Shown in pieces: positions 17,991 through 62,540 of a stretch of 64,000 nucleotides of DNA. Source of the DNA: a virus (taxonomy: Duplodnaviria > Caudoviricetes); IMG/VR virus record IMGVR_UViG_3300031784_000002; one strand, given 5' to 3'. Each line of letters opens with the position of its first letter. Positions within the stretch are counted from its first letter, which is position 1. The notes beneath the pieces are model-generated. The model saw nothing but the letters and a program-made list of their open reading frames with translations. It was not told the DNA's origin and ran no database searches. The position numbers and the translations under genes were made by a program.

Positions 17991-19649
17991 ATGGCCGGTG
18001 TATCTACTCATTTCATTGCAGAATGTAAGGAAGAACTTGAATTTAAAAAGCAAGAAAAAGAACAGTTACTGGAACAACTTGCATTATATGATGTAAGAAT
18101 AGATCGATATGATGCAGTTATTGAAAATATGGACAGGTCATTATTGCCTGGGATAGCAGAAATTAATGCTGGAGCGACTGCTGCAGCTGCAGCATATGAG
18201 TCTAGAGTTTCTACTGGGTGTAAAAGTGATTTAGCTTGGGTTCAAACCGGCCAACGTACTTTTAGAGTCGGTTTTACAAGCGTAGTGACTGAAACAATCT
18301 ATGAAGTCAAAAAAGATTCTTCCACATATACACAGTATGGAAAATGGGGAATAAAATATTACAGAAGACCTAAAAATCAAGATTATGGTTCCAATATTGT
18401 TTCTGAATTTTATGGAGCTATCAGTGCAGGAACTACCAACTTAGCAATTGTTCAAGCTGGTGTTGCTGGAACTGTTGGTATTTTGCCTGGTGATCTTATT
18501 ACGGATGATCTAGAAAATCCTACTGTATTTGGAATAAATAATCTTCCCAATATTGTTGGTTTCGGACAAAGTACCTTAGTAATTGAAACCAAAATTTTTA
18601 ATGGTAAGGTTACAATTGGATCTACTGTTATTGCACAAGCAGGAGTTGGAGATACAACTCAAATTCAAGTAGGTAATAGAATTATTGGAACCAGTGTTTT
18701 ACCTTTTGAAACTACTGTAGTGGCTATTAGTTCTGCTCCAATTGATATTGAAATATGGGATTTTGATTTTGGTGGATTTATTACCACTAGTGTTACTGTT
18801 CCATCTTTGGTCATAAGTAATCCAGCTTTAGGTTCAACTACTATTGACTTTGCAATAGGAATTACAAGTACTTATGATTCATTTTTAATAGATGTCCCTG
18901 CAAGTCAAGATGTTAATCCTAGTGATCCTACGAATTTTACTATAATTAGAACTACGCAATCAGTATTGGATGAATTTGATGCTACAAATAATCCTATAGA
19001 TCCAGTTACTGTGGGGATTATGAATGAAAGCACTGTAGGATTTGGCCATAGTGTTGTGAGAGTTAGTAGTACTGCTCCTCCGGGACCTTTTCAGTGGAGA
19101 GAAGTTCTCGGTGATTTTGATCCAGAACCTGAGTGTGGGGCTGGATTTGTAGATTGGTATGAAGGAACTACTCAATGGCCTGTATTGATTACCAATACAT
19201 TTGATTCTGAAGGAGCCTTAATTAGTTCGAGTAGCGCACATGCGCCAGAAGGAACTACAGTTACATTATCAGTTGGAAGTACTGTTCCACAAAGATATGG
19301 AATAGGATATACTGGAACCAGTTCAAATAATCCATCTTTTTCTGGTTGTGGGGCACAAAATACTGCTATATCAAACGCGGAATCAACAAGAAATTCAAGT
19401 ATTACAAAGTCACAAGCAACAGTGGATGAAACTCTTGCTGCTTCATTAAGACTTAGACAACTTAGAGATAAGTTGGAAGGTCAAGCATTTGTCTTTTTAC
19501 AAGGAAGAGCTGCAGCGGACGCAGAAATAGTTAGATTAACTAAGGCAATTGCAGAGTTGGAAGCGGTAGATTTATCGCAATATGAACCAACAACGAACAT
19601 AAACAAAAATAAATACACAAACAATACGGTCGGGGTGCCAACCACTTAA
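17991..19649 (+). CDS. Hypothetical virion structural protein
   Basis: 552-aa ORF with coiled-coil termini and beta-rich middle; CATAAATA late-like promoter at about 17947. Confidence 0.6.
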   Translation: MAGVSTHFIAECKEELEFKKQEKEQLLEQLALYDVRIDRYDAVIENMDRSLLPGIAEINAGATAAAAAYESRVSTGCKSDLAWVQTGQRTFRVGFTSVVTETIYEVKKDSSTYTQYGKWGIKYYRRPKNQDYGSNIVSEFYGAISAGTTNLAIVQAGVAGTVGILPGDLITDDLENPTVFGINNLPNIVGFGQSTLVIETKIFNGKVTIGSTVIAQAGVGDTTQIQVGNRIIGTSVLPFETTVVAISSAPIDIEIWDFDFGGFITTSVTVPSLVISNPALGSTTIDFAIGITSTYDSFLIDVPASQDVNPSDPTNFTIIRTTQSVLDEFDATNNPIDPVTVGIMNESTVGFGHSVVRVSSTAPPGPFQWREVLGDFDPEPECGAGFVDWYEGTTQWPVLITNTFDSEGALISSSSAHAPEGTTVTLSVGSTVPQRYGIGYTGTSSNNPSFSGCGAQNTAISNAESTRNSSITKSQATVDETLAASLRLRQLRDKLEGQAFVFLQGRAAADAEIVRLTKAIAELEAVDLSQYEPTTNINKNKYTNNTVGVPTT

Positions 19650-46465: not shown

Positions 46466-47377
46466 AAGAACACACATCTCGAACATCCCGAAGATTCTGC
46501 ACTTCTCGGTAAGAAAGCCGTGCAGGATACTATCAATTACCTGCGTAACTGCAAAGGTGATTGTAGTGTGAAATATGATGGTGCTCCTGCTATTGTTTTT
46601 GGGACTAATCCCGAGAATGGTAAGAAGTTTGTAGGTACAAAAAGTGTATTCAATAAGGTCAAAGTTAAGATCAATTATACACACTCCGACATCGAAAAGA
46701 ATCACGGCACGAATCCTAAAGTTGCAGCGATTCTTCATACCTGCCTTTCTCACTTCCCGCAGTTTGATGGGATTTATCAGTGCGATTGGATTGGTTATGG
46801 TGGTGAAACAACTTTTACGCCTAATACTATTACCTACAATTTTGATTCCGTTCCAGGTATTCTGGACGTTGATCTTATTGTCGCTGCTCATACACATTAC
46901 ACTGGAGATTCCATCAAGGAACTGGAGGCACATTTTGGTGTCCCTAACTATCTTTCTGGTCGTTTTCTTGGTATTCATTTTGTAGATGGAAATGCACAAT
47001 TTACCTCCCGTCGTCGTAGGATTGATTACATTCTTGGTCTTGCAAGTGTGGTTAGCAATTTTGTTAGATACCCTGATGAAAAAGAAGTAGCGAACCTTAA
47101 AATTGCAATCAATAAGTGTATCCGAGAGAATCGACCTGTTGATTGTATTGATGGCAATCTCCTCCTGTTGTTCAACCTGTTGACCAAAGCTAAAGAATTG
47201 ATCATGGAAGGAATCTCCGTGACTGGTGATCAGGTTGATGCACGGATTGATATGGGCATTGATTACATTCCTTCTGGCCATGAGGGTTATGTTCACTCCA
47301 ACGATTACGGGACTTTCAAGTTAGTTAATCGTCGTATGTTCTCTTACTACAACTTCACCAAACCTAAAGGTTGGTGA
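46463..47377 (+). CDS. T4-like-phage conserved protein with KxDG (ligase-type nucleotidyltransferase) motif
   Basis: HLEHPED, SVKYDGAPAIVFG, FVGTKSVFN, EGYV, KLVNR..FSYYNF. Confidence 0.65.
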   Translation: MKNTHLEHPEDSALLGKKAVQDTINYLRNCKGDCSVKYDGAPAIVFGTNPENGKKFVGTKSVFNKVKVKINYTHSDIEKNHGTNPKVAAILHTCLSHFPQFDGIYQCDWIGYGGETTFTPNTITYNFDSVPGILDVDLIVAAHTHYTGDSIKELEAHFGVPNYLSGRFLGIHFVDGNAQFTSRRRRIDYILGLASVVSNFVRYPDEKEVANLKIAINKCIRENRPVDCIDGNLLLLFNLLTKAKELIMEGISVTGDQVDARIDMGIDYIPSGHEGYVHSNDYGTFKLVNRRMFSYYNFTKPKGW

Positions 47378-47449
47378 GGACAGTTACGGAACCGTCCACT
47401 AGAGGCGCCAGGCGACTCCCTGGCGATGTATCTTAGCCATGTTGAGAGG
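47378..47449 (+). promoter_or_regulatory. Promoter cassette copy
   Basis: GGACA-N10-CGTCCAC; CGCCAGG/CCTGGCG hairpin; TATCTTAGCCATGTTGAGAGG. Confidence 0.85.
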
Positions 47450-49007
47450 TTCACCCATGAATCGCATTGAGATCCAACGGGCACTGTATGATGCCCGCAA
47501 CAACTACCTCAAAGCGAAAGCTTCGGTAGAGTTCTATCGTAAGGAGATCATGTTCCTCAAGGAATGTGAAGCAAACCTCGACAAACCTGAAAACTGGTTG
47601 TATCAGGAAATGTTCGGAGTTGAAGCATGAAAGTTGATCTTACTGACTATCAAATCAATCTGATTCTCTATTGCCTTGAACAACAGGCTTCTGAGTTCAC
47701 TTGGGATGAAAACCTTGACTATAAAGGCATTCTAAGGGCTGTTGAGTCTGCTGCTAACTTTGAATACGATTTTGGTTACTAAATGACCCGCACTCTTGCT
47801 GAACTCCGTCAAGCTATCAATCAACTGATTGTCCGACAGGGTGAACATGCACCTGTAGCTGCATGGATCTACACTAAAGATGATGTTCTCGATTATCCCG
47901 ATGATGAAGTAACTGTAACCGAAGAAGTTGCAAACAAAGTGATTGAAAATCTAGATCAGTATGATCACATTTACACCGAAATCTTTGATTGTATTGATGA
48001 AGAACTCCGTCAAGTTGAGGTACTAAAATGACTGAGTTTATGCCTTGGAATGAAATGAAAAAGCAGATGACGATTGAAGCCGTTGAATACTACATCTATC
48101 GGATGAAGAAAGACAACGCCAATCAAGCTGCGATTGATGTCTACACTAAGTTTCTGGAGGAACTTGAAGCGGAATGAACTACCTTTGTCTCGTTGATGGT
48201 GTTGTTGAGTACGGCAGCACAAGTCTCTCCGACTTTGCACACTATCAATTAGTGTATGCTGAAGAGCATAGAAATGCTGATGTTCAGTATCTTACTCTAA
48301 CTGACGAAGAATACGACGAAATGTTCCCTTACGAGGAGGATGAATGACTTACACTATTACCAAACACATCAAAATTGAGCACGAAGAAGATGGTTGGAGT
48401 TTTGATTTTACTGCTGATGAGTGTGGAACTGTGAGTGTGGAAGATGGTAATGGACCAGGATTTCAAACCATTCATATTCCTAAAGATTGTATTCAACACT
48501 TCATTGATGTCCTGGGACAATACAAATGACTTACTCTAACCTCTCCAAGATTCGTCCCAAACTGAGAACAACTGGGCGTGTGTCAGGAAACTTCGGACGC
48601 AACAAAGTTGTTAGTGGATCTCCCCTAAATGATGTAGGTATGAGTAACGCAGAAGTCGTAAAGTGTATGAAACAGGATGAATACCTTGCACGGCTTTGGT
48701 ACGCATTTGATAACACTGATGATGACAAACTAAAACAATTCGTTTATACTGAAATTAAAAAGATTCACATTCAACGAGGTACATGGTGATGAGCTACAAC
48801 CGATTCGGTGACAAATCTCTTGCATGGCTTCTTGGAGCCGCTACAGGTATTATTGCAGTTTCATTTCTGTTTCTTTGTTTTGAAGCTTGGTTACTTGGAT
48901 TGATCCTATCCTGGTTCGCAGTTCAACTTACATTCTGGCAATGTTTCGCTATTATCTTCCTCATTCAGGCCCTTCTAGGTGCCGCAAAGAGCAACAAATG
49001 ATCTAGT

Positions 49008-49078
49008 GTGACAGTTGGCGGGCTGGACACCAAACCCGCCAAACCCAGCCAGATCCTGTATCTTGGCCATGTTGAGAG
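49008..49078 (+). promoter_or_regulatory. Promoter cassette copy
   Basis: GTGACA-N10-TGGACAC..CCGCCA..TATCTTGGCCATGTTGAGAG. Confidence 0.85.
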
Positions 49079-49693
49079 ATGAATCAAATGCGAATCGACA
49101 TCCGTTGCCCTGCAGCTCCTTGGGAGAATCACACCACTGATCATGACAAAGCTTATGACATTGCATTTAATTTGAGTGAAGAGTATCAGTGCGATGTTGA
49201 CCTCTTTTACAACTCCACTGGTGGACTTTACTCTGTTGTTTCTGCATACTGATGGACACCAAATACGCACAAGATCGCATCAATTATGTGATCACATCAC
49301 TTGAAGATGCACTTCTAAAGTGTATCTCAGTGGATTTCACTGATGATGCAAAGATGGACCAATCACCCGCTTATGTGATTGGTTACACAAGTTCAATGAT
49401 TAAAAATGCACTGGCAGATCTTAAGGGTGTTGCCAACGATCTAAACTAATGTCTTAAGTTATCGGAGAAAAATTATGTTCACTGCACTGACTGTTGCTGC
49501 TGCATGGTTTTCATTTGGCTATTGCGTTACTGACATTGTATTGAATCGACGTAGTGCTAAACGACTGGATGAGATGTTGAAAGATATTGTAGAAGCTGAA
49601 ACGGACAGATGATTTATTTTGTCATCTATTTGGCCGCAGTTGCCATAGCAGTTGCGATCAATTATGCTCTTTGTTCCGTAAATCCGAGAGACA

Positions 49694-49999
49694 ATGATCC
49701 TAGCTAGTTTGATGTGTGGAATCGCCACATTCTATGGCGTTGGTGATGGATTCCATGGCCAAGTTACTGCAAGTGGCAAGACCTTTAATGCCTACGAATT
49801 AACTGCTGCTCACCCTTATCTTCCAATGGGTAGCAAACTACGCATCACCAATCAAGATAACATGAAGCAGGTGATTGTGCGAGTGAATGATAGAGGTCCG
49901 TACAGCCATGCAGATATTGATTTATCTTATGGGGCTTTCAGAAAGATTGCTCCACCTTCCAATGGTAATGCAACTGTATGTTTTAGGGTGATTGGTTAA
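49694..49999 (+). CDS. rlpA: RlpA-like lytic transglycosylase (DPBB domain)
   Basis: ATFYG, FHGQVTASG, TAAHPYLPMGS, VRVNDRGPY, IDLS. Confidence 0.9.
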   Translation: MILASLMCGIATFYGVGDGFHGQVTASGKTFNAYELTAAHPYLPMGSKLRITNQDNMKQVIVRVNDRGPYSHADIDLSYGAFRKIAPPSNGNATVCFRVIG

Positions 50000-50182
50000 T
50001 TAACAACAATTGATTTTTGATGAATCTGATTGCAGGGGATGACCTAATCCCCTACTGGGGTAAAATTGCAGAAAAATCATTGTTTGCTCAAACTCAAATC
50101 CCTTGCCACGACAGGGATCTTAAAGTGAGAACCATGCGACGATTTGAGGGTTGGACGGATCAGAGACAAACCGAGCCAGAGT

Positions 50183-50253
50183 GTGACAATCCGCAAACCG
50201 CACACCAATTCAACCAAAGGTGGCCATGAGGATGTATCTTAGCTATGTTGAGA
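50183..50253 (+). promoter_or_regulatory. Promoter cassette copy
   Basis: GTGACA-N10-CGCACAC...TATCTTAGCTATGTTGAGA. Confidence 0.8.
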
Positions 50254-50903
50254 CAAACACACAAACCCCATGACTTTCGTTGACGCACTGATCGCATCTG
50301 GTTATGTCTTTGATGATGAGAATTATGATGGTTGTTATGTGAAACAAGACTCAGAGGGTTTCATTCACTGTTATCAGGAAAATGTGGATGATGACACTGA
50401 CACTCTCTGGAATTATGTCAAAATGACTGAGGATTTTGATGTGATTCATGAGGTTACTTTTGATCCCAATGTTGATACTATTGTTGAGTGAATCAATGAA
50501 CTTCACTCATAAAGTTAGAAGTTGGTCTGTAACTCTTCCAAGAGAGTTAGAAGAAGAGAAGAAATGGTGGAGGAGAAAACCAGGAAAACCCAGAAAGATG
50601 GGTGATCCGTTACCACCACCAAAGGGTAAATTACCCAAGAAAAATAGTGACAAACGCATGTTGCAAGGTTACTATTTGTTGAAGAGAAGTGGTCAACCTG
50701 TTGATGCACTTGAATCTCTGATTGCACACCTTCTGTGACACAAATCATGAACGACAAAACTAAACTCATTTTCGCATTGATGCAGATTGATAACATCACC
50801 AACCTGATGAAAGAGAATGAGTATGAGCACTTTATGGTGTCACACTTAATTCCACTTCAGGTAGAGATTCAACGACAACTGAGCAACATAAACCATAGGG
50901 AGT

Positions 50904-50976
50904 GTGCCAGTCTGCAGACCGTCCACTAAACCTGCCGAAGGGGGCCGTGGCCTTGTATCTTAGCCATGTTGAGAGG
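50904..50976 (+). promoter_or_regulatory. Promoter cassette copy
   Basis: GTGCCA-N10-CGTCCAC..CTGCCG..TATCTTAGCCATGTTGAGAGG. Confidence 0.85.
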
Positions 50977-51791
50977 AACGCAAATGACCCGCAAGTTTCA
51001 CACCATGAGCATCGAAGATCGTGAAATGTTTGCTTACAATTCTGCCTACCAAAAGCAACAGGCCGAGATGAAGCGTATTCTTGCACAACCCGAGCAACGC
51101 ATTAAGTATGCCTTTGAGTTTCTGAAAGGTTATGTTGCTGATGGTGATCAAATGATGGCAGCAAAGTGTTACAATGCCATCGCAAAGTACAGTGAAATGC
51201 TTGACACTTCTGAGGCCCACTTCTGATGAAAACTAACTACATTCCCAAACAACATTGGGACGATTTATATGATCGTCTCCATGATGCTTATGTTGAGTGC
51301 ATGAAGTATCACAATCCAACTTATGAGCAGAAACTTGCTCAAATCTTGGATCATATGATTATCAACAAACCCCATCTGGCTATCAAATGACTTACAAAGA
51401 ACTCCTGCAACAGCTTCAACAACTCGACGAAGATCAGCTCAATTCTGATGTTGTTATCTATGATGAAGGCATCAATGAGTATTATCAACTCAAAGTTGAG
51501 TTAGTGTTTGCAACTGAGCGATGTCAGGTACTTAATCTAGACCACCCTATCATTCGTTTCTGATGATGTACGCAACCCTAGCTGAGTTTCATAGTTACGT
51601 CTTCAAGTTCTATGGCCGTGGTGGTGTGTATCCTATGGGTGCAACTTTGAAGGAGATTGCATCAGCAACTGAGATTCTGTTGGAGCAACTTACTGCAACA
51701 GATGGTGAGTTTCATGGTGATAGTATGGATCGTGAGCTTGTGCGGGACATTCTCATTTCAGAATACGGCTTAGAGTTTCCCGATTAAGCTT

Positions 51792-51862
51792 GTGACAGTT
51801 GGCGGGCCGTCCACCAAACCCGCCAAAGGGGCCCAGGGCCCTGTATCTTAGCCATGTTGAGA
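51792..51862 (+). promoter_or_regulatory. Promoter cassette copy
   Basis: GTGACA-N10-CGTCCAC..CCGCCA..TATCTTAGCCATGTTGAGA. Confidence 0.85.
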
Positions 51863-52649
51863 CAAACAAACGCAATGCGCTACATCACTATCACCTTCGG
51901 CCCTCGCAACGATGATCCTAGCCAGTTCTACAACGAGCGTACTTGGTGGGATCGTCAGAGTCAAGCTGAGAAGTGGGGGCTTCAGTCTCTCTCAATCGCA
52001 GGTTGTTTCGGTTATGTTGTGATTGAAGAGGGAGAGGATTCGTGGAAGATTGTGGATGAACTTGGTGCTCCTTCTAATGCTGTGAGTGTGTCTGCTGAGT
52101 ATAAAGGTGGAGTCACCTATTCTGTTCAACCTGCACCTAAACTTGTTCTGGTTTGATGAACTACCGAATGAGAATTATGTTGTCTCCAATTATCTCCTGG
52201 CACCGACATGTTACAGGATACTGGGAGAAGAAACTCCCACACATTCCTGGAGCAAACTCTAAACAATTCTGGAACATTATCAACGGAAACTGATGCACAC
52301 TGGTTACACTTTCAACCGAGTTGAGTTCACTCAAGATGAGGAAACTTGTCTCTTGCGTTTGATGTTCCAAGCACGAGATTGTGGGAACTGTAATGTTGAT
52401 GAAGAATGGCTGCCTTTGTGTAATGATCTGATCACAAAGTATTACAACAGCCACATCAAAGAAGCTCAACCTTTCCAAACTCTCTGAAATTATCATGGTC
52501 GTTCACTTCTACGAAGGTCAATCCTACTCCTGGAATTATGCCAACCGCAGCTACGATGATAGTGGTTGCTGGGAAGATTATCTGTCTGGGGATGAGTATG
52601 AAGAGGCTCTAGATCGTAAGCGGTTTGAGCAATCAAATCGGGACTGGTA

Positions 52650-52720
52650 GGCCAATTTACTGGCTGCACACTAAATCCGCCGAGTGCAGCCAGAACCTGT
52701 ATCTTAGCCATGTTGAGAGG
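52650..52720 (+). promoter_or_regulatory. Promoter cassette copy
   Basis: GGCCA-N10-TGCACAC..CCGCCG..TATCTTAGCCATGTTGAGAGG. Confidence 0.8.
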
Positions 52721-53098
52721 AATCGCAATGACCGAGTTCCAAACTATCATCAACGATCTGACTCCCGAAGAGCGTAAAGCTCTAAAAGAAGCAACTGCTC
52801 CCGAATGGGTCAAAGCTATCCGTGAGACTGTCAATGATCCAAACTTTTGGAATGACATGGCTATTGCTTTTGCTCAAGGAGTTATCAACGGATTGAATGA
52901 TGCTCTGGATGACAACAACAATCGCCGTCACCGCTGATGACTGACGCACAAAAGCTTGAGGCACTGACTGACCTTCTCTCCAATGTCATTCACTCTCTGG
53001 AGATGACAAAGTATGAGATTGAAGATGTATCAGAGGCAGCAAATGTGGTTCGTGAGGCAGACCACTATCACCAACAAATGCTAGACATTCTTCATGGT

Positions 53099-53172
53099 GG
53101 CCCAGTTGAAGAACCTGCACAAGCCCCCTAGACTTCTCCAGCCAGATCCTGTATCTTAGCCATGTTGAGAGG
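53099..53172 (+). promoter_or_regulatory. Promoter cassette copy
   Basis: GGCCCA-N10-CTGCAC; TAGACT-N17-TATCTTAGCCATGTTGAGAGG. Confidence 0.8.
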
Positions 53173-54428
53173 AATCGCTCCCCAATGTTTGACGAACTCT
53201 GGTCCGAGATTGCTGACATGCCTGGTGAAATCTTTGACACCACGATGACAGCAGAAGAACGAGCTGAGTTTCAGCGAGTTTGTGAAATGTCTGAAGAAGA
53301 GTATTACTACTACATGGAAGCTGCCTGAAATGATGAACGATCTCCGTCAACGTTGCATGGATCTCGCCGATGAAATGTCGGCCGAGGTGAATGGAAACCT
53401 GTTCTATGTTCCCGATGAAGACATAGAGGATTGTCTGAAAGCTTTGACTGAGGATAACATCCAAGATGTCGCAGCTGAACTTGCAAACTTAGCTCACTGG
53501 TTTAACTGATCATGAACCTGAACACTCTTGAATTGCTCATTGCTGACTGCTTTGAGTACATTTATGACCGCGACGCCAAAGCTGGTGCGTATTGGTGTGA
53601 ACAACTCTTCACCAAGCAAGGTGACATCAAGCGTCACATGATCACTGAGATGACGCTACAACGGCTTGAGAACATCGCCGCTGACCTTTATGATCATCAG
53701 GAAGCCTGAAATGACGAATCAAGAATGGGTTGATGGCTTCAAGATTGTGCTGATCATCCTATTTGTGATTGGTGTGATCATTCTTTATGTTCACAACATC
53801 AAAGTTGAGCATGCTGATTGTATCGCACACGGCGGCCAATGGGTGCATGGACTCAGCTCAGATGGTGGGGCTCAATTCTACTGCATTGAGCCCCCTGGAA
53901 TCTAACACAAACACAACACACAAAACAATGCAAACCACCAAAGCTTTCCCTCCCGCTGACGATCTGATTATGAAACTGCAAGAGATTGACTACATCAAAC
54001 AACTGAACAAATACATGGACATTGTTGAAACTATTGTGGTATGGATTGCCGCAATCGCTACTATCATCTTTGAGAAGTTTCAAACTCTAAAGATCACAAC
54101 TCCTCAAGCTATCTCCGATTACTTCTACTTTAGCTTTAACATGCGCTATGCTCCTGGTGATGAGATTATGGCTCTGAGTGTAGGTAATCTTTACCTCGGT
54201 TTGTATAGCGATTCGCTGAACTGGGGTGTGCTTGACGAGAACGGCTGCCTCTGATTTGATCAAACATCTAATTTGATGCAATTCTGGCTGCATGGGATGA
54301 TCCAATCTACCTGTCAGCCAGTTTTAACGCTTTTTTCGGTTTCTGTCCTAGTGGTGGCCACGAGTCTCACCGCTTCCAACCTGAGACCAGCAGGGGGCTT
54401 CTGCGATCCTGACCAAACCTGGGGGCTT

Positions 54429-54498
54429 GTGACAATTGGCTCCCTGGGCCAGATTCTCGCCAAAGGGCCCCTCGGCCCCATATATTGGCCACATGAGG
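54429..54498 (+). promoter_or_regulatory. Promoter cassette copy (GGCCACATGA subtype)
   Basis: GTGACA...TCGCCA...TATATTGGCCACATGA. Confidence 0.75.
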
Positions 54499-54545
54499 GA
54501 GAGGGAACGACCCCGACCCCGACCAAACCATTCTCTGCTCAAACC

Positions 54546-54860
54546 ATGCGTAAGATCGAAACCCTGATGAACAAAGCTATCCAGCAAGAAATTGACTGGA
54601 AGCTGGACAACACCGAAGTCATCAGCTGCTCCAACGTTTCTGATGTCTACCTGCATGGCAATCTGATTGCTCGCATCGGTGAAACTTGGCTGGAACTGTT
54701 CGACGGTGGTTGGCAGACTGCTACCACGAAGTCCCGTCTGAATGCTATTCTCGCTGCACACGGCTGCCCTGGTGAGCGTGTCTTCCAACAGAAAGGCCAG
54801 TGGTTCATCACTATCAACGGAGCTAAGGTTCCTTTCTTCTCCGGTATGCGCCTGAACTGA
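54546..54860 (+). CDS. Conserved phage hypothetical protein
   Basis: MRKIE...VYLHGNLIA...DGGWQTATTKSRLNAIL; first gene after a cassette. Confidence 0.7.
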   Translation: MRKIETLMNKAIQQEIDWKLDNTEVISCSNVSDVYLHGNLIARIGETWLELFDGGWQTATTKSRLNAILAAHGCPGERVFQQKGQWFITINGAKVPFFSGMRLN

Positions 54861-55513
54861 TGGCTAGAACCAAGACGCTAACATTCAAGTCACCCGACAA
54901 AATGAAAACAATTGGCCTGATCTTTGTGATAGCGTTCTTGTTTTTCCCATCAGTTCGTTACACCACGGGGAGCATGATGCACTCTGCCGCTGATTTCATC
55001 CAATCCACAGCTAACTGATCATGATGACACTTACCGCTCTTAATTTTCAAGAACTCGATACACTTTTGGCTGTTCTTGAGTCTAGCGATTGGTGCTACTT
55101 GACTGAACTTACAGAGACAGACATTCCGGCTCTGTATGATAAACTTTCTGAAATGCGGGACGAAGTGTAATGAAACACACCAACACAGTTCGCATCATCG
55201 ACCGACTTGGCTTGTTCCCTGAGACTAGAGGAAAAGCCCGCTACATCTCGGTCAAAACTTATGCTCATGCAATGGAGATTGTGGATGAGCAGAACAAACT
55301 CGGCAACACAGCTACCCTGATTAACTGGTAACAAATTATGGGACATCATCGCACAATGGTTGAAACTGAACACTACGAGCTTCCGCTTGACTTTTATCTC
55401 AAGTGTGAGTTCATTGCTGCTCAATTAGAGGTCACAGTTGATTACCTTCTCGATGAGTTTTACGATGACGGGGAGCTCATTGTGCCAGACTTTGTGCAAG
55501 AATGAGCAGCGAT

Positions 55514-55586
55514 GTGACAGTCTTCGGACTGTCCACTAAATCCGCCAAACCCCAGCCAGTCTTGGTATCTTAGCCATGTTGAGAGG
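55514..55586 (+). promoter_or_regulatory. Promoter cassette copy
   Basis: GTGACA-N10-TGTCCAC..CCGCCA..TATCTTAGCCATGTTGAGAGG. Confidence 0.85.
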
Positions 55587-56078
55587 TTCACGAATGACCA
55601 ACGCAACCAACTTCATTCCCTGCACTGACATCGAAACCCGTCAAGCTATGTGGGTTGGTATGAAATACGATGAGCAACTTGGTATCTTCAATGCTGTTCA
55701 AGTTGCATCGGCTTTCGCAGATCGTTATGCGGAAGATTACAAGCCTGTGACCTTCTGTGACTGAATCCAACTCTACATCTTCCAAACAAATGTTCACAAT
55801 CACCTATCAAGTTCCTTACAACAACTGTGAGTGGAGGACTCAAAGCTTCAAGACTCTTGAAGAAGCACAACGGATGATAGATTTCTACCGTTCTTGTGGT
55901 TCACCTTGCAAACTTGTTTGAGTAATTTAATCATGCGAATCGCTCTTCTGATTGCTACTCTTGCTCTTGGACTGAAGACTGGTCTTGCTGCTCATGCTAC
56001 GGTGAATGCCTATCAAGAAGCACAAGCCGAACGGCTGTGCCAGATTGATCCAAGCTACTGCGGACTGAAGCAAAAGTA

Positions 56079-56145
56079 GGACAGTCTGATGGCTGTCCAC
56101 CAAATCCGCCGAACCGACCCGTTTGGCCCTATATTGGCCACATGA
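56079..56145 (+). promoter_or_regulatory. Promoter cassette copy (GGCCACATGA subtype)
   Basis: GGACA-N10-TGTCCAC..CCGCCG..TATATTGGCCACATGA. Confidence 0.8.
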
Positions 56146-56941
56146 AGAACAACACCACTCAAATGTCACTTTTCTCCCAAGGCTGGAAAGCTGAAGAATA
56201 CTTCGGTAGCGAGCTGACTGCTCATCACATGAACACTCGTTCGGTGTATCGTTTCAAGGAGAATGCCAATGTGAGCATCACTCACTCCGGAAAGTATGCT
56301 GAAGATGGAACTGTTGATGTGTTCACAGTTTCTGTTCGTGAGGAGATCAATCCTCGCCACTCGGTTACTCAAACTGTTGAGACCTTTGCTAACTTTTTGG
56401 ACGCATACTACTGCGGTGTGCAGTGTGTCAACAATCTGAATCTTGATCTCATCACTATTAACTGAATCAATTTACTGAGCAACTATCATGAACATTTTTG
56501 ACCTGCAACGTGATCTCCAGAAGGAAAAGCTTTCTCTGGAAGAATTGCTGACTGAAGTGAAGGCTTCACTGGTGACGATCAACGAAAACCTAGAAGCTGT
56601 TGATCGAGTTGCCAAGATGTTTGGTGGAAAAGCCACATCGCCCGAACACAATCAAGAGTTCATGGCTAAACTACGTTCGCTGCTCTCTCAGAAGTTCAGC
56701 CAGAGGGAAGTTGATGAACTCATTGAAATTATTGAGCAAGATGATGTGCGGAGGCTGAACGGCAAACTGAATAAGAACCCTGCAAGCTACACTCACCAAG
56801 TTCTCGCATTGTGCTATCAGATGCGAATTGTGAATGGTAACATTCAAGATCACATGAAGGATGCGATTAAGCGTCTGCGTGAAGCTGGCCACATTTCAGT
56901 GGAGCAATCTAAGTGGTTTGTTTCACAAGGTTTCTAATCAT

Positions 56942-57013
56942 GTGACAGCCATGCGGCTGTCCACCAAATCCGCCGAGACCCGCCATCTGATGTATTCTAG
57001 CCATGTTGAGAGG
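56942..57013 (+). promoter_or_regulatory. Promoter cassette copy
   Basis: GTGACA-N10-TGTCCAC..CCGCCG..TATTCTAGCCATGTTGAGAGG. Confidence 0.85.
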
Positions 57014-57657
57014 AATCGGAACCCAAATGAAAGTCTACGCTGTGATCGGTGGTTGGGATTATGAAGGCGAAGACTTTCAATCCCTGCGCCTGTTTGATTG
57101 TTTCTCTGCTGCTGATGCGTACCTGAAGCAACTTGATGAAGAATACGATTATGCTAAGATGGACACCCGCGAGGTGTGCATGGAATCTGCAATCGCTGCT
57201 TGATCATGAAAAACTATCGCGTTCGTGTTGAAACTAACGATGGCTGTGTCACGATTTGGTATGAGAAATCAAACGCAAAACGTGCTTGTGATCTTATCAA
57301 CAATCGGGTCTACAATCAGCTCTGTGGGTTGAACATCAAGGAAGTTGAAGTAACTCCTTCCGTCTGAACTTTTCTTCTTAATTAACACAAACACAAACTC
57401 ATGACTAACACTTTCGACCGCGCACAACTCGTTGAAGATTACATTCAACAACTGATTGAGGGAATGGACTATAAAACAATGGAGTGCTTTGTTTATGATA
57501 CTATGAAAGAGAATCTTTCTAGTTATACTGATGAAGAATTGATTACAGAGGTTCAAGACTACTATCCTGAGCTGATTGAAGGCTGATTCGCCATTTGCGA
57601 ATAGAGAATGAGATGCGCTCTAAAGACACTCACATTCCCAAACACTTTGCTACTCTC

Positions 57658-57783
57658 ATGATTCAAACTCGTAAAGACTTCTTCATTCAAGTTCTCGATC
57701 AGTTTGCTACTAATGGTAACGAACTTCTGCAGATTCTGGATGACATCGAATCTGGCGAATGTGAATGCTTTCTCGAAGATTGA
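57658..57783 (+). CDS. Small acidic protein with NGxEhLxhLD motif
   Basis: MIQTRKDFFIQVLDQFATNGNELLQILDDIESG. Confidence 0.6.
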   Translation: MIQTRKDFFIQVLDQFATNGNELLQILDDIESGECECFLED

Positions 57784-57829
57784 GCTCTAATTCTTTACAC
57801 TTTTCCCAAACACTTTTCTTCTTTTTCTC

Positions 57830-57988
57830 ATGACTCTTCAAACTGCAATCTCCATGCTTCAGAGTGCTCGCAACGGCGCCGAAATGCTTGAGGTTCTTGA
57901 TAGTCTCGCAGGTGGCTATGAGTACATCGAGTCCCCCATGATTGCTCAGGTGCTCGGAGTGCCCACGCTTGAACCAATGGAGTTCTGA
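57830..57988 (+). CDS. Small acidic protein with NGxEhLxhLD motif (paralog)
   Basis: MTLQTAISMLQSARNGAEMLEVLDSLAGG read manually. Confidence 0.6.
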   Translation: MTLQTAISMLQSARNGAEMLEVLDSLAGGYEYIESPMIAQVLGVPTLEPMEF

Positions 57989-57999
57989 TGATAGAATAG

Positions 58000-58024
58000 A
58001 GGGGGCTGAATAAGTCCCCTTTTG
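58000..58024 (+). terminator. Probable intrinsic terminator
   Basis: AGGGGGCT-GAATA-AGTCCCCT-TTT. Confidence 0.6.
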
Positions 58025-58784
58025 TGTCAACTTAACCCCGTAAATTGACTTCAATTCGTCACAACTTACGACATGAAGAAACGCTACCTGATTGCTGCAT
58101 CAATTCTGCCATTGACTCTGCTTGTGTTCGCAACAGTTCGGGACAGTTGTGCTAATCCCAGCTATGCCCAATACTTTACAGAATCATGCCAGACAAAATG
58201 ACACAATCAAATTGGGCTGAGAATCTAACACCTGAAGAGCAACAACAAACTTACAACGAGATCGTCAATTATCTCAAAGAAGAAGTGCTTTCACAGGTGT
58301 CAGAAAAGTATGACAAACCCATTGCCTATAAGTACAGAAACGTATAAAATAGTAACGTACCTTCAACCACATTCAAGGACACACACTCATGCAAACCATC
58401 AACAACAAAGTTACACGCTATCGAGTTACGTTAGACTTTACAGTTGATACATCTAACTGTGTAAGTCCTAAGGAATGGAACTGGGCTCAACTTCTCGAAC
58501 TTGGTAACAGCGAATCAGTCAATGAGGTTTATGTAGAGAATCTCGGAGAATATAACATTCGTAGGAGCAAGTGAAGATGGGAGAAGATCAAGAGTTTTTT
58601 TACAACGAAATGATCGAACAAAGTTACTACGAAGAGGGAACGATTGACTGGGATGATTGCTCTCAAGGTGCGACTGAAGTAGAGTCTTATGATCCATAAG
58701 CTTTCAACGGAGACAACAGCAAAGGAGGAGTGGAGTTACATTGCTTTAGTCCTCAAAGAGTTGTTATCAATGAGTTATGAAAGC

Positions 58785-59113
58785 TTTTCCACAAGGCTGT
58801 TGAAAAAGCTGTGGAAAAATGGCTTTAAAATAAATGGCTAAAAAAACATGGCTTGTGTGAAAGCTTTCTCGTTTATGTTCTCTCTGTGGCCCCTCTGATG
58901 GCTTATAAAAAAGCCTCTGAGCCTTATGCTTATGTCCTCTAGAAAGCCTCTGAGACCTTGTGATCTAAGCGTGCAGGCTATCACACGACCGCATAAATGT
59001 CAAGAGGCACCTCACATAAGTCTCCGGGACCACACAATTTGAGCAACTTACCCCCCTCACAGTTCTTATAGTTTTCCACAGCACTTGTGGAAAAAGTCTA
59101 TAAGTTTTCCACA
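58785..59113. repeat. Cluster of five perfect TTTTCCACA (DnaA-box consensus) 9-mers in a gene-free interval
   Basis: Plus strand at 58785, 59072 and 59105; minus strand at 58810 and 59086; one-mismatch copy at 58798. Confidence 0.85.
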
Positions 59114-59300
59114 GCCTTATGAGCACTCTAAGTCCCCCACATCTCGGAGCTTGACATAAGCCCTCTGAAAGCCTTATAATAACTCTGTGGGAGTGCATAA
59201 AGGGGCTGAGTGCTTAAGCCTAAGCTAAAGGACTTATGTAAAGCTCAAGCCACAGAGACTTATGAGCCTACCATAGATTGCTGAGATCCAGAGACACAAT

Positions 59301-59371
59301 GGACACTTATCTAACTGGCCACAGAATGTGCCAGAGGGAGCCAGATCCCGTATATTAGCCATGTTGAGAGG
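59301..59371 (+). promoter_or_regulatory. Promoter cassette copy
   Basis: GGACA-N10-TGGCCAC...TATATTAGCCATGTTGAGAGG. Confidence 0.8.
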
Positions 59372-59378
59372 AACACAC

Positions 59379-59624
59379 ATGAGCACCACCCAAACCACTC
59401 AAGCTACCTACAACGGTTACGCTAACTACGAGACCTGGAATGCTGCTCTGTGGATTGGTAATGATTACGGTCTGTATAAGCTTGCTCTTCAGTGTCGTGA
59501 TTATGCCGAGTTCCAAGAGCTTATGATTGACGACCTCGGTATGAGCTGCACTCCTGATGGTGTACTCTGGAACGACTCTGAGCTGAACCACGATGAGCTT
59601 GATGAGGTGATCAAAGAACTCTGA
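59379..59624 (+). CDS. Conserved phage hypothetical protein
   Basis: YNGYANYETWNAALWIGND...TPDGV.W. Confidence 0.75.
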   Translation: MSTTQTTQATYNGYANYETWNAALWIGNDYGLYKLALQCRDYAEFQELMIDDLGMSCTPDGVLWNDSELNHDELDEVIKEL

Positions 59625-59881
59625 GCTTCATTAACACTTTTCTCACTTAAGATTCATGATGATCACTAACACTGAGACCCGTCCATTCTTCGTTCAACAA
59701 GCAAAGTCTGGCAGGTGGAATGTATGGGTCTTTCAGAGAGAAACTGAGGACGGTTACAAGTATGCCGTCAAGCAAACATTCAAAGATCCTGATGTTGCTC
59801 ATGACTGGGGCTTGAACTACATCAACCACGTCATTCGTTACTGATTCGTTTACTCTAACTCACCCACACACACTAACACTC

Positions 59882-60124
59882 ATGACTCTGAACATCGCCA
59901 CCGCAACTAAGCTCGACCTGTTGATTGCTGATATCCAAGGAGAGATTAAGTACACTGTGCTCCCCACCCGTAAGGCTCGGAAATCTGAACTGCTCATGAG
60001 CCGCACGAATGGCCCTCGGACTAACACTAACCGTCGTGGTCAAGCATACAGCGGACATGCCACACATGCACAGAATGCTGTGATTCAGGGCAATGATGCT
60101 GCATACTTCAAGACCAGCGGCTGA
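59882..60124 (+). CDS. Hypothetical protein, last gene of the early array
   Basis: Basic ORF with CA-rich leader. Confidence 0.7.
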   Translation: MTLNIATATKLDLLIADIQGEIKYTVLPTRKARKSELLMSRTNGPRTNTNRRGQAYSGHATHAQNAVIQGNDAAYFKTSG

Positions 60125-60362
60125 TGGGTTGAGTGTATGTCCCCTCTGAAGGCTTATGAGCACTTGGAGGGGACACGAATACGACTAGGAGGAGCAGCAG
60201 TCTTCGTGTACTTATGACAGTTTGAGCAGTTGTTTGTGCGCCCGTTGTTGTTAGCGCGGGGCGCGGTGGCCCCCGTATATAAAAACGCTAAACTACCCTA
60301 ATCTATAACGACCCCAAAAAGCGCTCGAAAAGCCTTCCGCATTCAAAAAATTTTTTGGTGGC

Positions 60363-60394: not shown

Positions 60395-61519
60395 ATGGAA
60401 GTCAAAACACTATCTTTTTATCCTGGAGTACCTTTCAATGATGCGATTGAAAGTTTCTTGGATGCATATGAGCTCGGAGAAGATATCGAGTGTTATCAAT
60501 TAATTTTTTGTCCTTATGGGCGTCATACATCCTTTGGTGACTTATATAATATTGAATTTAAGAGTAGAGTTGTAATTTTAAATGTCATTGATTTTATCAT
60601 TGATGGATTGGATAATATTGCAACTGAAGAAATTAAACAATTCTGCGAGGATCACCCTGAACAAAATTTTATTATATTCAATTACAACATAGGTCTCGGA
60701 GACAAACTGAATGTTCCGAACTTACATTGGGATACAATTTTTTCAGGAACTTTAACAGAGAGATTAACTCACTGTGAAAAGAAAAATCTAACCAATAAAT
60801 GGTTATCATTGAATGCAGATACAAAGTTACACAGAGTCATGGCGGTGTGTTACTTGTTATCAAAAGACTATCATGAGAATGGTTATATTACTTTCAACAT
60901 GAACGCTGGTCCACTTGCAAGTCATGATAGTTATCGTAATTTTACCAAGATCTCATCGTATCAATTAAAAAGTAGTTTTGCGAAGGGATACGTCAAGTTT
61001 AAGTCAAAAGATTTTAGACGATTGAAAATAAAAAATTTCAGTTCAATTGAAGATAGAGTATCAACTAATTACAATAATAATTTAATGCCAATCTACGAAA
61101 GAATTGGTGTAGAGATTATTACTGGAACAATGTTCTTTGAGAATGTTCCAAGTTTAAGTGAGAAAGAAGTTCAATCTGTATATGCCAAAAATTTTCCAAT
61201 TTATATTAATGGAATTGGAATGGCAAGAGAAATTAAAAAGCTTTTTGATATTGATATCTTTGAAGATATTGTAGATCATAGTTATGATGAAATTGAAGAT
61301 CATTTTGAGAGACTTGCAGCAGCAATTGATAGGAATCAACATTTGTTAGATGGCTCTACCAATATCCATGAATTGTGGTATGATAATCAAAAGAGATTTG
61401 AGGATAACTGTGAAAAGATGGATCAAATTATTTTTGATTCAAAGTATCAACAGAGCATAAACTATAAAAAGATAGAAAATGCTTTGTCTAAGTTTGGAGT
61501 CTCTTTTTCAAAAAAATAA
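60395..61519 (+). CDS. AT-rich hypothetical protein, possibly sugar/glycosylation related
   Basis: 374-aa ORF; WLSLN...HR, IEIITGT, LSEK, FDIDIFEDIVDHSYDEI pattern. Confidence 0.6.
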   Translation: MEVKTLSFYPGVPFNDAIESFLDAYELGEDIECYQLIFCPYGRHTSFGDLYNIEFKSRVVILNVIDFIIDGLDNIATEEIKQFCEDHPEQNFIIFNYNIGLGDKLNVPNLHWDTIFSGTLTERLTHCEKKNLTNKWLSLNADTKLHRVMAVCYLLSKDYHENGYITFNMNAGPLASHDSYRNFTKISSYQLKSSFAKGYVKFKSKDFRRLKIKNFSSIEDRVSTNYNNNLMPIYERIGVEIITGTMFFENVPSLSEKEVQSVYAKNFPIYINGIGMAREIKKLFDIDIFEDIVDHSYDEIEDHFERLAAAIDRNQHLLDGSTNIHELWYDNQKRFEDNCEKMDQIIFDSKYQQSINYKKIENALSKFGVSFSKK

Positions 61520-61787
61520 AATCATATATAATGTTTGAAATGAACTTAAAGGAATATATGGAACTTAAGTTGGATTACCAGGAAAAAGATCTACTCATTG
61601 ATTGCATTCAACATCGATTAGATACGGATAAAATTTTAGTCATCAATGATTCTCTCAAGAATGAAATTGAAGATTTATTGGTCAAAATTGAAGAAGAATG
61701 TGTTTGATTTGACATTCTAAATAAACCAGAAACCATTGCATGAATTGACTTGTGGTGGTAGAATGATAACGTTGCAATTCTAATTTT

Positions 61788-62540
61788 ATGTCTAAAGGAT
61801 TTACAATTAAAGCTACAGCACCAACTCCAAAAAAGAATGAGGATGATTTTGATATCGATGCTGCAAAAGAAGCGATTCGTGGTAAATCAATTATCTTCTG
61901 TCTCCCTGGTCGTGGATGTTCCTATATCTTCCTGAAGAATTTTGTTCAACTTTGTTTTGATCTAGTCCAGAATGGTGCATCCATTCAAATTTCTCAGGAC
62001 TATTCTTCCATGGTTAACTTTGCACGTTGCAAGGTTCTTGGTGCAAACGTTCTGCGTGGACCAAAACAGATTCCCTGGGATGGTAAACTGAAGTATGATT
62101 ACCAACTCTGGATCGATAACGATATTGTGTTTGATACTGAGAAGTTCTATCGTCTCGTTGCAATGGATCGTGACATTGCGGCTGGTTGGTATATGACCGA
62201 AGATGGTCAAACGACTTCTGTTGCTCATTGGCTTGAAGAAGATGACTTTAAGAACAATGGTGGAGTCATGAACCATGAGACCGGAGAGACCATGAGTAAG
62301 CGCCGGAAACCCTTTACGGTGGACTATACTGGGTTTGGATGGGTTCTTATCAAGCATGGTGTCTTCGAGTCTCTAGAGTACCCCTGGTTCGCTCCTAAGA
62401 TGCAAGTATTCGACTCTGGAGAAGTTCAAGATATGTGTGGAGAAGACGTTTCGTTCTGTCTCGATGCAATTAAAGCGGGCTTTGAGATCTGGTGTGATCC
62501 GAAGATCCGTGTGGGTCACGAAAAGACTCGTATTATCTGA
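61788..62540 (+). CDS. GT2-like glycosyltransferase (conserved in cyanomyoviruses)
   Basis: IIFCLPG, QLWIDNDIVF (DxD), VDYTGFGWVLIK, GEDVSFC, DPKIRVGHEK. Confidence 0.85.
   Translation: MSKGFTIKATAPTPKKNEDDFDIDAAKEAIRGKSIIFCLPGRGCSYIFLKNFVQLCFDLVQNGASIQISQDYSSMVNFARCKVLGANVLRGPKQIPWDGKLKYDYQLWIDNDIVFDTEKFYRLVAMDRDIAAGWYMTEDGQTTSVAHWLEEDDFKNNGGVMNHETGETMSKRRKPFTVDYTGFGWVLIKHGVFESLEYPWFAPKMQVFDSGEVQDMCGEDVSFCLDAIKAGFEIWCDPKIRVGHEKTRII

Follow-up and report, generated by a model that had tools for sequence, protein, structure and literature searches.

Host-type DnaA boxes bracket a backward-facing promoter in a freshwater T4-like cyanophage: a candidate module for replication origin function or promoter control

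Does a lytic T4-like cyanophage make use of the replication initiator of its host? This question is raised by a short interval in the IMG/VR virus record IMGVR_UViG_3300031784_000002. The stretch analyzed here, referred to as the window, comprises 64,000 nt of a 123,864-bp IMG/VR contig, and coordinates refer to the window unless another record is named. An earlier note on the window had pointed to a group of host-type DnaA boxes in a gene-free interval at 58700-59300, and had suggested that they serve as an origin, as a sink for DnaA, or as control of a neighboring promoter. We find that the boxes form two clusters, that these clusters bracket a backward-facing promoter (P_L), and that the second of them lies between P_L and a divergent, forward promoter (P_R). 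We propose that the interval acts in cis as a control module that would recruit host DnaA. Our leading, albeit tentative, interpretation (with a probability of roughly 40%) is that the module is a DnaA-assisted, transcription-activated origin of the T4 oriF/oriG type to which host DnaA boxes have been joined. Given conserved, perfect boxes around two back-to-back promoters, it is probable that replication onset or timing, and early genes, are tied in this virus to the host initiator.

The five exact copies of TTTTCCACA and the single one-mismatch copy described earlier were confirmed, as were the inverted pairs, the A/T stretch and AAAGCCTCTGAG, which is repeated twice in the interval. A scan of the entire contig returned the same five exact copies and no others, within a span of 329 bp. 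Among all 9-mers of the contig, TTTTCCACA ranked first for clustering, with the next ranks taken by coding repeats of tail-fibre genes. Boxes with at most one mismatch were present at 10 per kb in 58700-59300, compared to 0.49 per kb elsewhere. The earlier estimate of about one chance copy per 64 kb was close to the computed expectation of 1.47, and five copies anywhere in the window were reached by 1 of 100 shuffles. Thus, the copy number of TTTTCCACA by itself is mildly unusual, while its clustering is the stronger point.

Identification of the 9-mer as a cyanobacterial DnaA box agrees with published work, in which TTTTCCACA is the cyanobacteria-specific box and is bound by DnaA in vitro (PMC4674748). 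It fits the general consensus TT(A/T)TNCACA, and in two cyanobacterial genomes (G002 and G069) it forms clusters directly upstream of dnaN. We compared the sequence context of the phage boxes with that of cellular clusters. Across 453 distinct phage contexts, the base preceding the box was G in 60% and A in 4%, compared to 54% and 6%, respectively, for the cellular clusters. The base following it was G in 56%, A in 34% and C in 5%, compared to 40%, 35% and 7%, so that G or A followed 90% of phage boxes and 75% of cellular ones. Information beyond the 9-mer was limited to one base on each side across the phage contexts. Tandem boxes were spaced by ~11-12, 21-22 and 42-44 bp in the phage and cellular sets alike; convergent and divergent spacings were left out of this comparison, as they are biased by the search patterns. 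Boxes occupy both strands, which fits a protein that binds duplex DNA rather than an RNA motif. Host DnaA is very probably the reader of these boxes.

A different protein, of phage or host origin, whose sites happen to resemble the DnaA box is a decidedly unlikely reader. Since CheckV places completeness of the contig at 58%, the gene for a phage DNA-binding protein could lie outside of it. However, hundreds of copies agree with the host DnaA consensus at each of the nine positions, chromosomal boxes show the same flank preference and helical phasing, and no DnaA domain IV, the DNA-binding domain, was found encoded in the 123,864-bp contig. The exact triple layout was matched in 42 of 185,579 species genomes scanned; these belong to diverse bacteria, two of them cyanobacteria by title, and none was found among genomes titled Synechococcus, Cyanobium or Prochlorococcus, indicating that the module was not captured recently from a host oriC. 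Convergent box pairs were present in 24 of 151 sampled cyanobacterial genomes, none of which was smaller than 3 Mb.

Conservation at the syntenic position had been named beforehand as a test of the earlier proposal, and the boxes are indeed kept in many relatives. Loci were collected by means of the DUF7249 protein encoded next to the module, and hence irrespective of box content. Both clusters were retained in loci sampled in this way, with the +,-,+ triple of cluster 2 having start-codon offsets of -307/-293/-274 or being displaced as a unit (triple-bearing loci: L123, L125, L126, L128, L130, L131, L135, L136, L140, L149 and L151). In 10 loci, the distance of the boxes from the downstream gene was the same to the base, with the boxes of the other loci block-shifted, and the adjacent DUF7249 protein was just 45-50% identical in several of the triple-bearing loci. 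We likewise measured identity to the window segment by segment in seven box-bearing relatives (Table 1). Identity is high over the boxes and P_L and low between them, and by this comparison the boxes and P_L are islands of constraint in a non-coding interval. Site 58798, which carries one mismatch in the window, is an exact box in 6 of the 7 relatives, L149 retaining the one-mismatch copy.

The boxes also recur more widely. A pattern scan of IMG/VR for the convergent box pair returned at least 120 contigs; among the matches listed, 85 share proteins of the same neighborhood with the phage. Many of these contigs carry 5-8 perfect boxes in <800 bp, with flanks that by eye look unalignable with the window. 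The same is true of the flanks in L013, L076, L055, L091, L010, S-PM2 and Syn9, each of which has between 2 (Syn9) and 8 perfect boxes in this genomic location. In S-PM2, a +,-,- box triple at 19231-19264 is followed by an A/T tract nearly identical to that of S-SCSM2R, while the box pair of Syn9 (52565/52589) lies between helicase and baseplate genes. As a separate observation, 35 of the 120 among the matches listed (e.g., L016, L094 and L106) are without similarity to the phage and contain 5-7 TTTTCCACA boxes in short spans, one of these contigs having 55% GC; they may represent box clusters in other phage groups or mis-binned host origins. Annotation of the cultured genomes also deserves comment. 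In Syn9 (NC_008296), gp86, a 52-aa ORF at 52477-52635, overlaps the box pair as well as a one-mismatch box at 52553, and is perhaps a false ORF call in non-coding control sequence. RefSeq tRNA features that cover the boxes and a neighboring iteron-like stretch of S-PM2 were not reproduced by ARAGORN.

The interval proved to be gene-free, as the earlier note had read it. Its short ORFs are of no constant length or position from one relative to the next, any frame is interrupted in one relative by a pair of compensating 1-nt indels, and the ORFs gave no matches to Pfam or PHROGs; together these indicate that it does not encode protein. An Rfam scan of 56-62 kb returned nothing at E up to 1, and a tRNA scan found none in the interval. 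It is very improbable that the boxes reflect chance, a hidden gene for a protein, or host origin DNA that was captured and left as a neutral remnant, an explanation that is already disfavored. In its favor are the 1 in 100 shuffles noted above and a 77-aa minus-strand ORF that overlaps cluster 2. Chance is opposed by the clustering, the conserved footprint and the recurrence of boxes in divergent lineages; a remnant in the form of a recent host oriC copy, by the 42 genomes that match the exact triple, none of which is titled for one of the three genera named above; and a hidden gene, by the lack of ORF conservation and of any family match.

We next consider the promoters around which the boxes are arranged (Table 1). 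P_L is predicted to start at ~58968 and to read leftward, toward the A/T tract, while all genes in the region of the module point the opposite way. Cluster 1 and the A/T tract are situated ~120-210 nt downstream of P_L, and the tract has boxes on both sides. It bears a 14-15-bp repeat, AAATGGCT(T/A)AAAA, and is conserved in relatives; S-SCSM2R and S-PM2 have their own tract, nearly identical between the two, at the same position. The degenerate box on the far side of the tract falls within a 17-nt inverted repeat paired with 58779-58795. Cluster 2, with three boxes in 42 bp, is located 69-110 bp upstream of the P_L -35 and 38 bp upstream of the P_R -35, and P_R is conserved in relatives and in S-SCSM2R. 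The earlier note had placed a promoter at 59301; what begins at that position proved instead to be a ~80-nt pre-gene element, one of several repeated copies, and the promoters are those at 59151-59180 (plus strand) and 59003-58975 (minus strand).

Table 1. Features of the box-bearing interval and its surroundings (window coordinates), with identity to the window in relatives.
Feature	Position	Strand	Details
DnaA box, exact TTTTCCACA, cluster 1	58785..58793	+	position kept in L128, L130 and L149
DnaA box, one mismatch (TTTTCAACA), cluster 1	58798..58806	-	tandem with the 58810 box, 12 bp start-to-start
DnaA box, exact TTTTCCACA, cluster 1	58810..58818	-	invariant in 7/7 aligned box-bearing relatives
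A/T-rich tract, candidate unwinding element	58819..58850	.	core ~58825-58848; ~+118 to +149 from predicted P_L start
Degenerate DnaA box (TGTGTGAAA, 2 mismatches), far side of A/T tract	58854..58862	-	exact box in L149
Dyad TGTGAT-N15-ATCACA	58959..58985	.	spans P_L -10 and start region; conserved GATC (58962-58965) at predicted start
P_L, sigma70-type promoter, backward-facing	58975..59003	-	TTGACA 59003-58998, 17-nt spacer ending TGn, TAGCCT 58980-58975
DnaA box, exact TTTTCCACA, cluster 2 box 1	59072..59080	+	invariant in relatives
DnaA box, exact TTTTCCACA, cluster 2 box 2	59086..59094	-	convergent with box 1, 5-nt spacer between
DnaA box, exact TTTTCCACA, cluster 2 box 3	59105..59113	+	end 38 bp upstream of P_R -35
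P_R, forward promoter	59151..59180	+	TTGACA-N18-TATAAT, 12/12 consensus matches; predicted start ~59188
Long 5' leader of DUF7249 operon (predicted)	59188..59378	+	~190 nt, conserved; last 78 nt (59301-59378) a copy of the repeated pre-gene element
First gene downstream of P_R	59379..59624	+	81-aa DUF7249 protein (phrog_871)
Cluster 2, identity	59066-59135		91-99%, seven relatives
P_L core, identity			84-93%, box-bearing relatives; 69% in S-SCSM2R
Cluster 1 plus A/T tract, identity			70-90%, seven relatives
Intervening stretch, identity	58866-58942		20-44%, seven relatives
Intervening stretch, identity	59011-59065		52-75%, seven relatives

We scanned the collected cyanomyovirus loci for the P_L pattern, defined as TTGACA, 13-15 nt, TGnTAnnnT, then ATCAC within 25 nt. 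It was present in 34 distinct cyanomyovirus contexts, 21 with boxes and 13 (including S-SCSM2R) without. Where boxes are present, they form an upstream cluster (-27 to -240), a downstream group that is in most cases a convergent pair (+77 to +263), or both. By eye, no link was seen between strength of the -10 and presence of boxes among the promoters of this set. Existence of contexts lacking boxes indicates that the boxes are a lineage-specific addition: judged by these sequences, the backward promoter and A/T tract are group-wide, forming a core that is older than the boxes, and the DnaA boxes are an add-on in some lineages. The downstream arm of the dyad, AGATCAC, is found in most of the 34 contexts. 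With its GATC, the dyad could be an operator for a dimeric regulator or could render the promoter Dam-sensitive. In lineage L010 the arms are of a different sequence, and still flank the -10.

Assembled RNA-library sequences bear on both promoters. Contigs from two metatranscriptome runs of one freshwater study are 100% identical to 58833-59073, 58907-59114, 59196-59445 and 59218-59419; they are strandless, have a depth of 3-6, and may derive in part from DNA carry-over. The P_R promoter itself (59115-59195) is uncovered, and two of the contigs start at 59196 and 59218, respectively, just past it. These starts are a weak hint that P_R is in use.

Our proposal for how the module might work starts from what is directly observed, namely motif identity, clustering, conservation, promoter sequences and geometry. 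The P_L transcript, after ~120 nt, would enter the box-flanked A/T tract and could form an R-loop that serves as primer. With DnaA on the cluster 1 boxes, downstream of P_L, the transcript would be stalled and the tract would be helped to stay open, after which gp41 helicase would be loaded by phage gp32 and gp59. At cluster 2, bound DnaA would set the firing frequency of both promoters. The predicted outcome is coupling of phage replication start and of one early operon to the amount and activity of host DnaA. In this scheme, binding of DnaA, activity of the promoters, R-loop formation and function as an origin are each predicted from sequence.

The scheme draws on T4, in which an R-loop formed by a transcript primes replication at oriF and oriG and gp59 then loads gp41 (Kreuzer and Brister 2010, PMC3016281). 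The two T4 origins, oriF (uvsY) and oriG (gene 34), are like the phage module in that they comprise ~100-250 bp of non-coding DNA with a promoter followed by an A/T-rich tract (PMC3016281). By sequence, the module fits this order, P_L (59003-58975, minus strand) preceding the A/T tract (58850-58819). The genome is likewise of T4 type, encoding gp32, gp59 and a T4-type replisome, and the P_L transcript is a candidate primer of the leading strand. Unlike the module, T4 relies on MotA-dependent middle promoters and on no host initiator, and ignores DnaA. P_L is instead a plain, MotA-independent sigma70 promoter with an extended -10, a dyad and flanking DnaA boxes, and its short A/T tract, ~120 nt downstream, is a weak unwinding element. 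That P_L and the A/T tract fit the T4 plan, together with a backward promoter that has no obvious coding purpose, is what leads us to favor an origin. The iteron-like array of S-PM2, located ~280 bp from the box triple of that phage, was also counted in its favor. This array (NC_006820, 19534-19603; ~3035-3104 of L176) consists of GATTTCTTAAGATTTAA units and contains the most clustered 9-mer of the S-PM2 genome, AAATCTTAA.

Several results weigh against an origin. First, P_L has a weak -10 in the lineage of the window; with only 3 of 6 consensus matches there, the promoter was missed by the consensus scanner. Moreover, the RNA-library contigs run across P_L without a start there, carry-over of DNA being possible. 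Second, the A/T tract is short, and ordinary for an A/T-rich genome: 12.8% of 30-bp windows genome-wide match or beat the least stable window of the interval (58815), although this window is in the top 0.5% within the GC-richer 47-60.3 kb region. Third, the signature of oriC unwinding, which consists of tandem boxes, a GC cluster, at least 3 DnaA-trios and an A/T tract, was not found in the module. In G002 the order is box-box-GGC, then CTA repeats and an A/T tract, with G069 as its mirror image; no TAG/CTA run adjoins a box anywhere in the window, and tandem boxes 58798/58810 point away from the A/T tract. In view of the missing DnaA-trios and the ordinary A/T tract, we rejected the idea that the module is a copy of a host oriC. 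Finally, the GC-skew check recommended in the earlier note failed to mark the module. Cumulative skew rises monotonically with no turning point there in the contig, Syn9 or S-PM2, and that of Syn9 turns at the record ends only, ~47 kb from the boxes. GC skew neither supports nor excludes an origin.

Distribution of the boxes counts against an essential role for DnaA as well. No box cluster was found in P-SSM2, P-SSM4 or S-SCSM2R, and S-SCSM2R, the nearest cultured relative, keeps P_L, P_R and the A/T tract. At least 3 exact boxes were present at 10 of the 37 loci of the DUF7249 sample. Another sample was drawn through a conserved 250-aa neighbor gene (phrog_1574) with at least 1.5 kb of upstream sequence; here, at least 3 exact boxes in 600 bp were found at 10 of 50 loci, always upstream, while the 442 kb of downstream control DNA contained 3 boxes in all. 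The module thus recurs, yet its distribution is patchy, being found in about a fifth to a quarter of the sampled T4-like cyanophage contigs. A core that persists without boxes in S-SCSM2R, the clusterless P-SSM2 and P-SSM4, and boxes that are not universal together indicate that DnaA is not essential to the core element. It is possible, but on the unlikely side, that host DnaA acts more broadly to license firing of the origin across many lytic T4-like cyanophages, such that the promoter/R-loop element would work only, or best, with DnaA-occupied boxes.

A DnaA-responsive transcriptional switch that is not an origin, which we regard as possible but on the unlikely side, would agree as well with an unwinding element that is only weakly supported. 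Here, DnaA at cluster 2 would activate or repress the divergent early promoters P_L and P_R, and DnaA at cluster 1 would block or terminate the leftward antisense transcript, so that the DUF7249 operon and an antisense RNA against the upstream small genes would track the replication and energy state of the host. One argument for it is position: cluster 2 lies between the promoters at the distances given above, boxes within or close upstream of a promoter being what is looked for in a DnaA-regulated promoter, and regulation itself being putative in this instance. That the boxes keep exactly the same distance from the downstream gene in 10 loci, and are block-shifted elsewhere, points the same way, while core promoters without boxes in other phages suit an accessory regulator. 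DnaA is known as a transcription regulator as well (PMC11317965), and dnaA is autoregulated (PMC5835720). Three observations are left unexplained by a switch, namely the boxes that flank the A/T tract downstream of P_L, the wide conservation of a backward promoter with its dyad and GATC where all genes point the other way, and the S-PM2 iteron-like array beside the module. The switch is compatible with an origin, the two not being mutually exclusive.

The remaining role suggested originally, that of a sink, was extended to any modulator of the host DnaA pool, whether a datA-like sink or a DARS-like element. Hundreds of amplified copies, each with five or six boxes, would bind, inactivate or recharge DnaA, and host initiation would be blocked or redirected. 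The boxes would be suited to this purpose, as they are perfect consensus sites, equal to or better than those at some of the sampled small-genome cyanobacterial origins, and plasmid-borne box clusters titrate DnaA in E. coli (PMC5835720). In number and density they are compatible with clusters of the datA/DARS type: datA has two consensus and four one-misfit boxes, and DARS has three boxes in ~70 bp and is found in promoter regions and at the ColE1 origin (PMC5835720), compared to the three in 42 bp of cluster 2. On the other hand, a pure sink needs no fixed promoter geometry, yet the geometry is conserved across lineages, and boxes are absent from most relatives. T4-like cyanophages are generally thought to degrade host DNA, which would make blocking of host initiation less valuable. 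We consider modulation of the pool improbable. Fixed box geometry around two promoters, maintained across lineages with flanks that by eye look otherwise unalignable, argues instead for a role in cis. Thus, of the three roles proposed in the earlier note, origin function and promoter control, separately or jointly, gained support and a pure sink lost it; sequence by itself cannot choose among the three.

The module can also be set beside other systems that contain DnaA boxes. Like the bacterial oriC of G002 and G069, it has the same 9-mer, the same flank preference, tandem helical phasing and an A/T tract beside boxes; unlike them, it has neither DnaA-trios nor a GC cluster by its boxes, it has no dnaN or dnaA neighbor, and a promoter stands at its center. 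Plasmid and temperate-phage replicons are known to employ host DnaA boxes as accessory elements. In pBR322 the helicase is loaded at an R-loop in a DnaA-dependent manner; P1 oriR is another example, and lambda pR is stimulated by DnaA. These replicons resemble the module in having accessory host boxes on an extrachromosomal element that relies for initiation on transcription or on factors of its own. They differ in being plasmids or temperate phages of Enterobacteria; none is lytic and T4-like, and none has the promoter-centered, two-cluster layout. The E. coli elements datA, DARS1 and DARS2 are similar in consisting of short clusters of three to six high-affinity boxes outside of oriC, with DARS in promoter regions, but they act in trans on the nucleotide state of DnaA and need IHF/Fis sites and a specific box orientation (PMC5835720), whereas the phage boxes are fixed in position relative to promoters.

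No description of DnaA boxes in cyanophages was found in the literature searched, and host DnaA boxes are, within that literature, undescribed for lytic T4-type phages. The sole cyanophage origin prediction found there is of a single theta origin for Syn9, as cited in PMC2984593. The conserved box array around a promoter and an A/T tract is a concrete candidate for an origin or a replication-timing switch, and suggests a route by which phage replication might sense the replication, energy or light state of the host. T4-like cyanophages count among the most abundant viruses in both lakes and oceans, and cyanobacterial DnaA activity is reportedly light-dependent. If host DnaA does license firing, then phage DNA replication would be gated by the same DnaA activity as replication of the host chromosome; this would provide a molecular basis for light- and growth-dependent cyanophage replication and the first host-initiator-dependent origin in the T4 superfamily. 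Even a module that acts just as a switch for promoters or as a sink for DnaA would provide the first example of the recognition code of the host initiator in use by a lytic T4-type phage. Cultured stand-ins are at hand in S-PM2 (~19.2 kb) and Syn9 (~52.6 kb), with the box-less S-SCSM2R as a natural control.

The phage itself is a T4-like cyanomyovirus, as the earlier note had recognized, on the basis of gp32 (270-1190), a UvsW-like helicase, baseplate genes, and gp59, which is encoded immediately to the left of the window. Its closest cultured relatives are S-SCSM2R and S-SRM01, each ~240 kb, and since matches to the stretch are almost all in freshwater or lake metagenomes we regard it as a freshwater phage. 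Neither psbA nor psbD is present in the contig. The small-gene region that holds the module (47000-60300) has ~40-52% GC, compared to ~29-43% (mostly 30-40%) in the remaining contig, a contrast that suggests mosaic origin or cassette exchange. Directly after it, at 60400-61800, is an island of 28-34% GC that encodes a 374-aa ORF without a family match.

Two further observations concern sequence upstream of genes. The first ~110 nt of the P_R leader (59188-59300) are conserved out to S-SCSM2R, with 73.5% identity over 59146-59279, and changes among relatives look compensatory (GCTTAAGCC.../...GGCTTAAGT variants); there was no Rfam match, and this segment may be a structured leader or a small RNA. 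The ~80-nt element that follows it is present in nine copies before small plus-strand genes at 47378-59388, the copies ending at 47452, 50258, 50979, 51867, 52723, 53175, 55589, 57016 and 59374. Each is built of a hairpin with apparent compensatory changes (GACAGTC...GACTGTC, GACAGCC...GGCTGTC), then CCAC(C/T)AAA(T/C)CC, then a second, variable GC hairpin, and finally a near-invariant GTATCTTAGCCATGTTGAGAGGAA leading into the start codon. RNAalifold gave a weak consensus hairpin only, and the three copies inside 56-62 kb were without an Rfam match. The element is similar to the mobile cassettes, of promoter and stem-loop type, that are found in T4-type hyperplastic regions.

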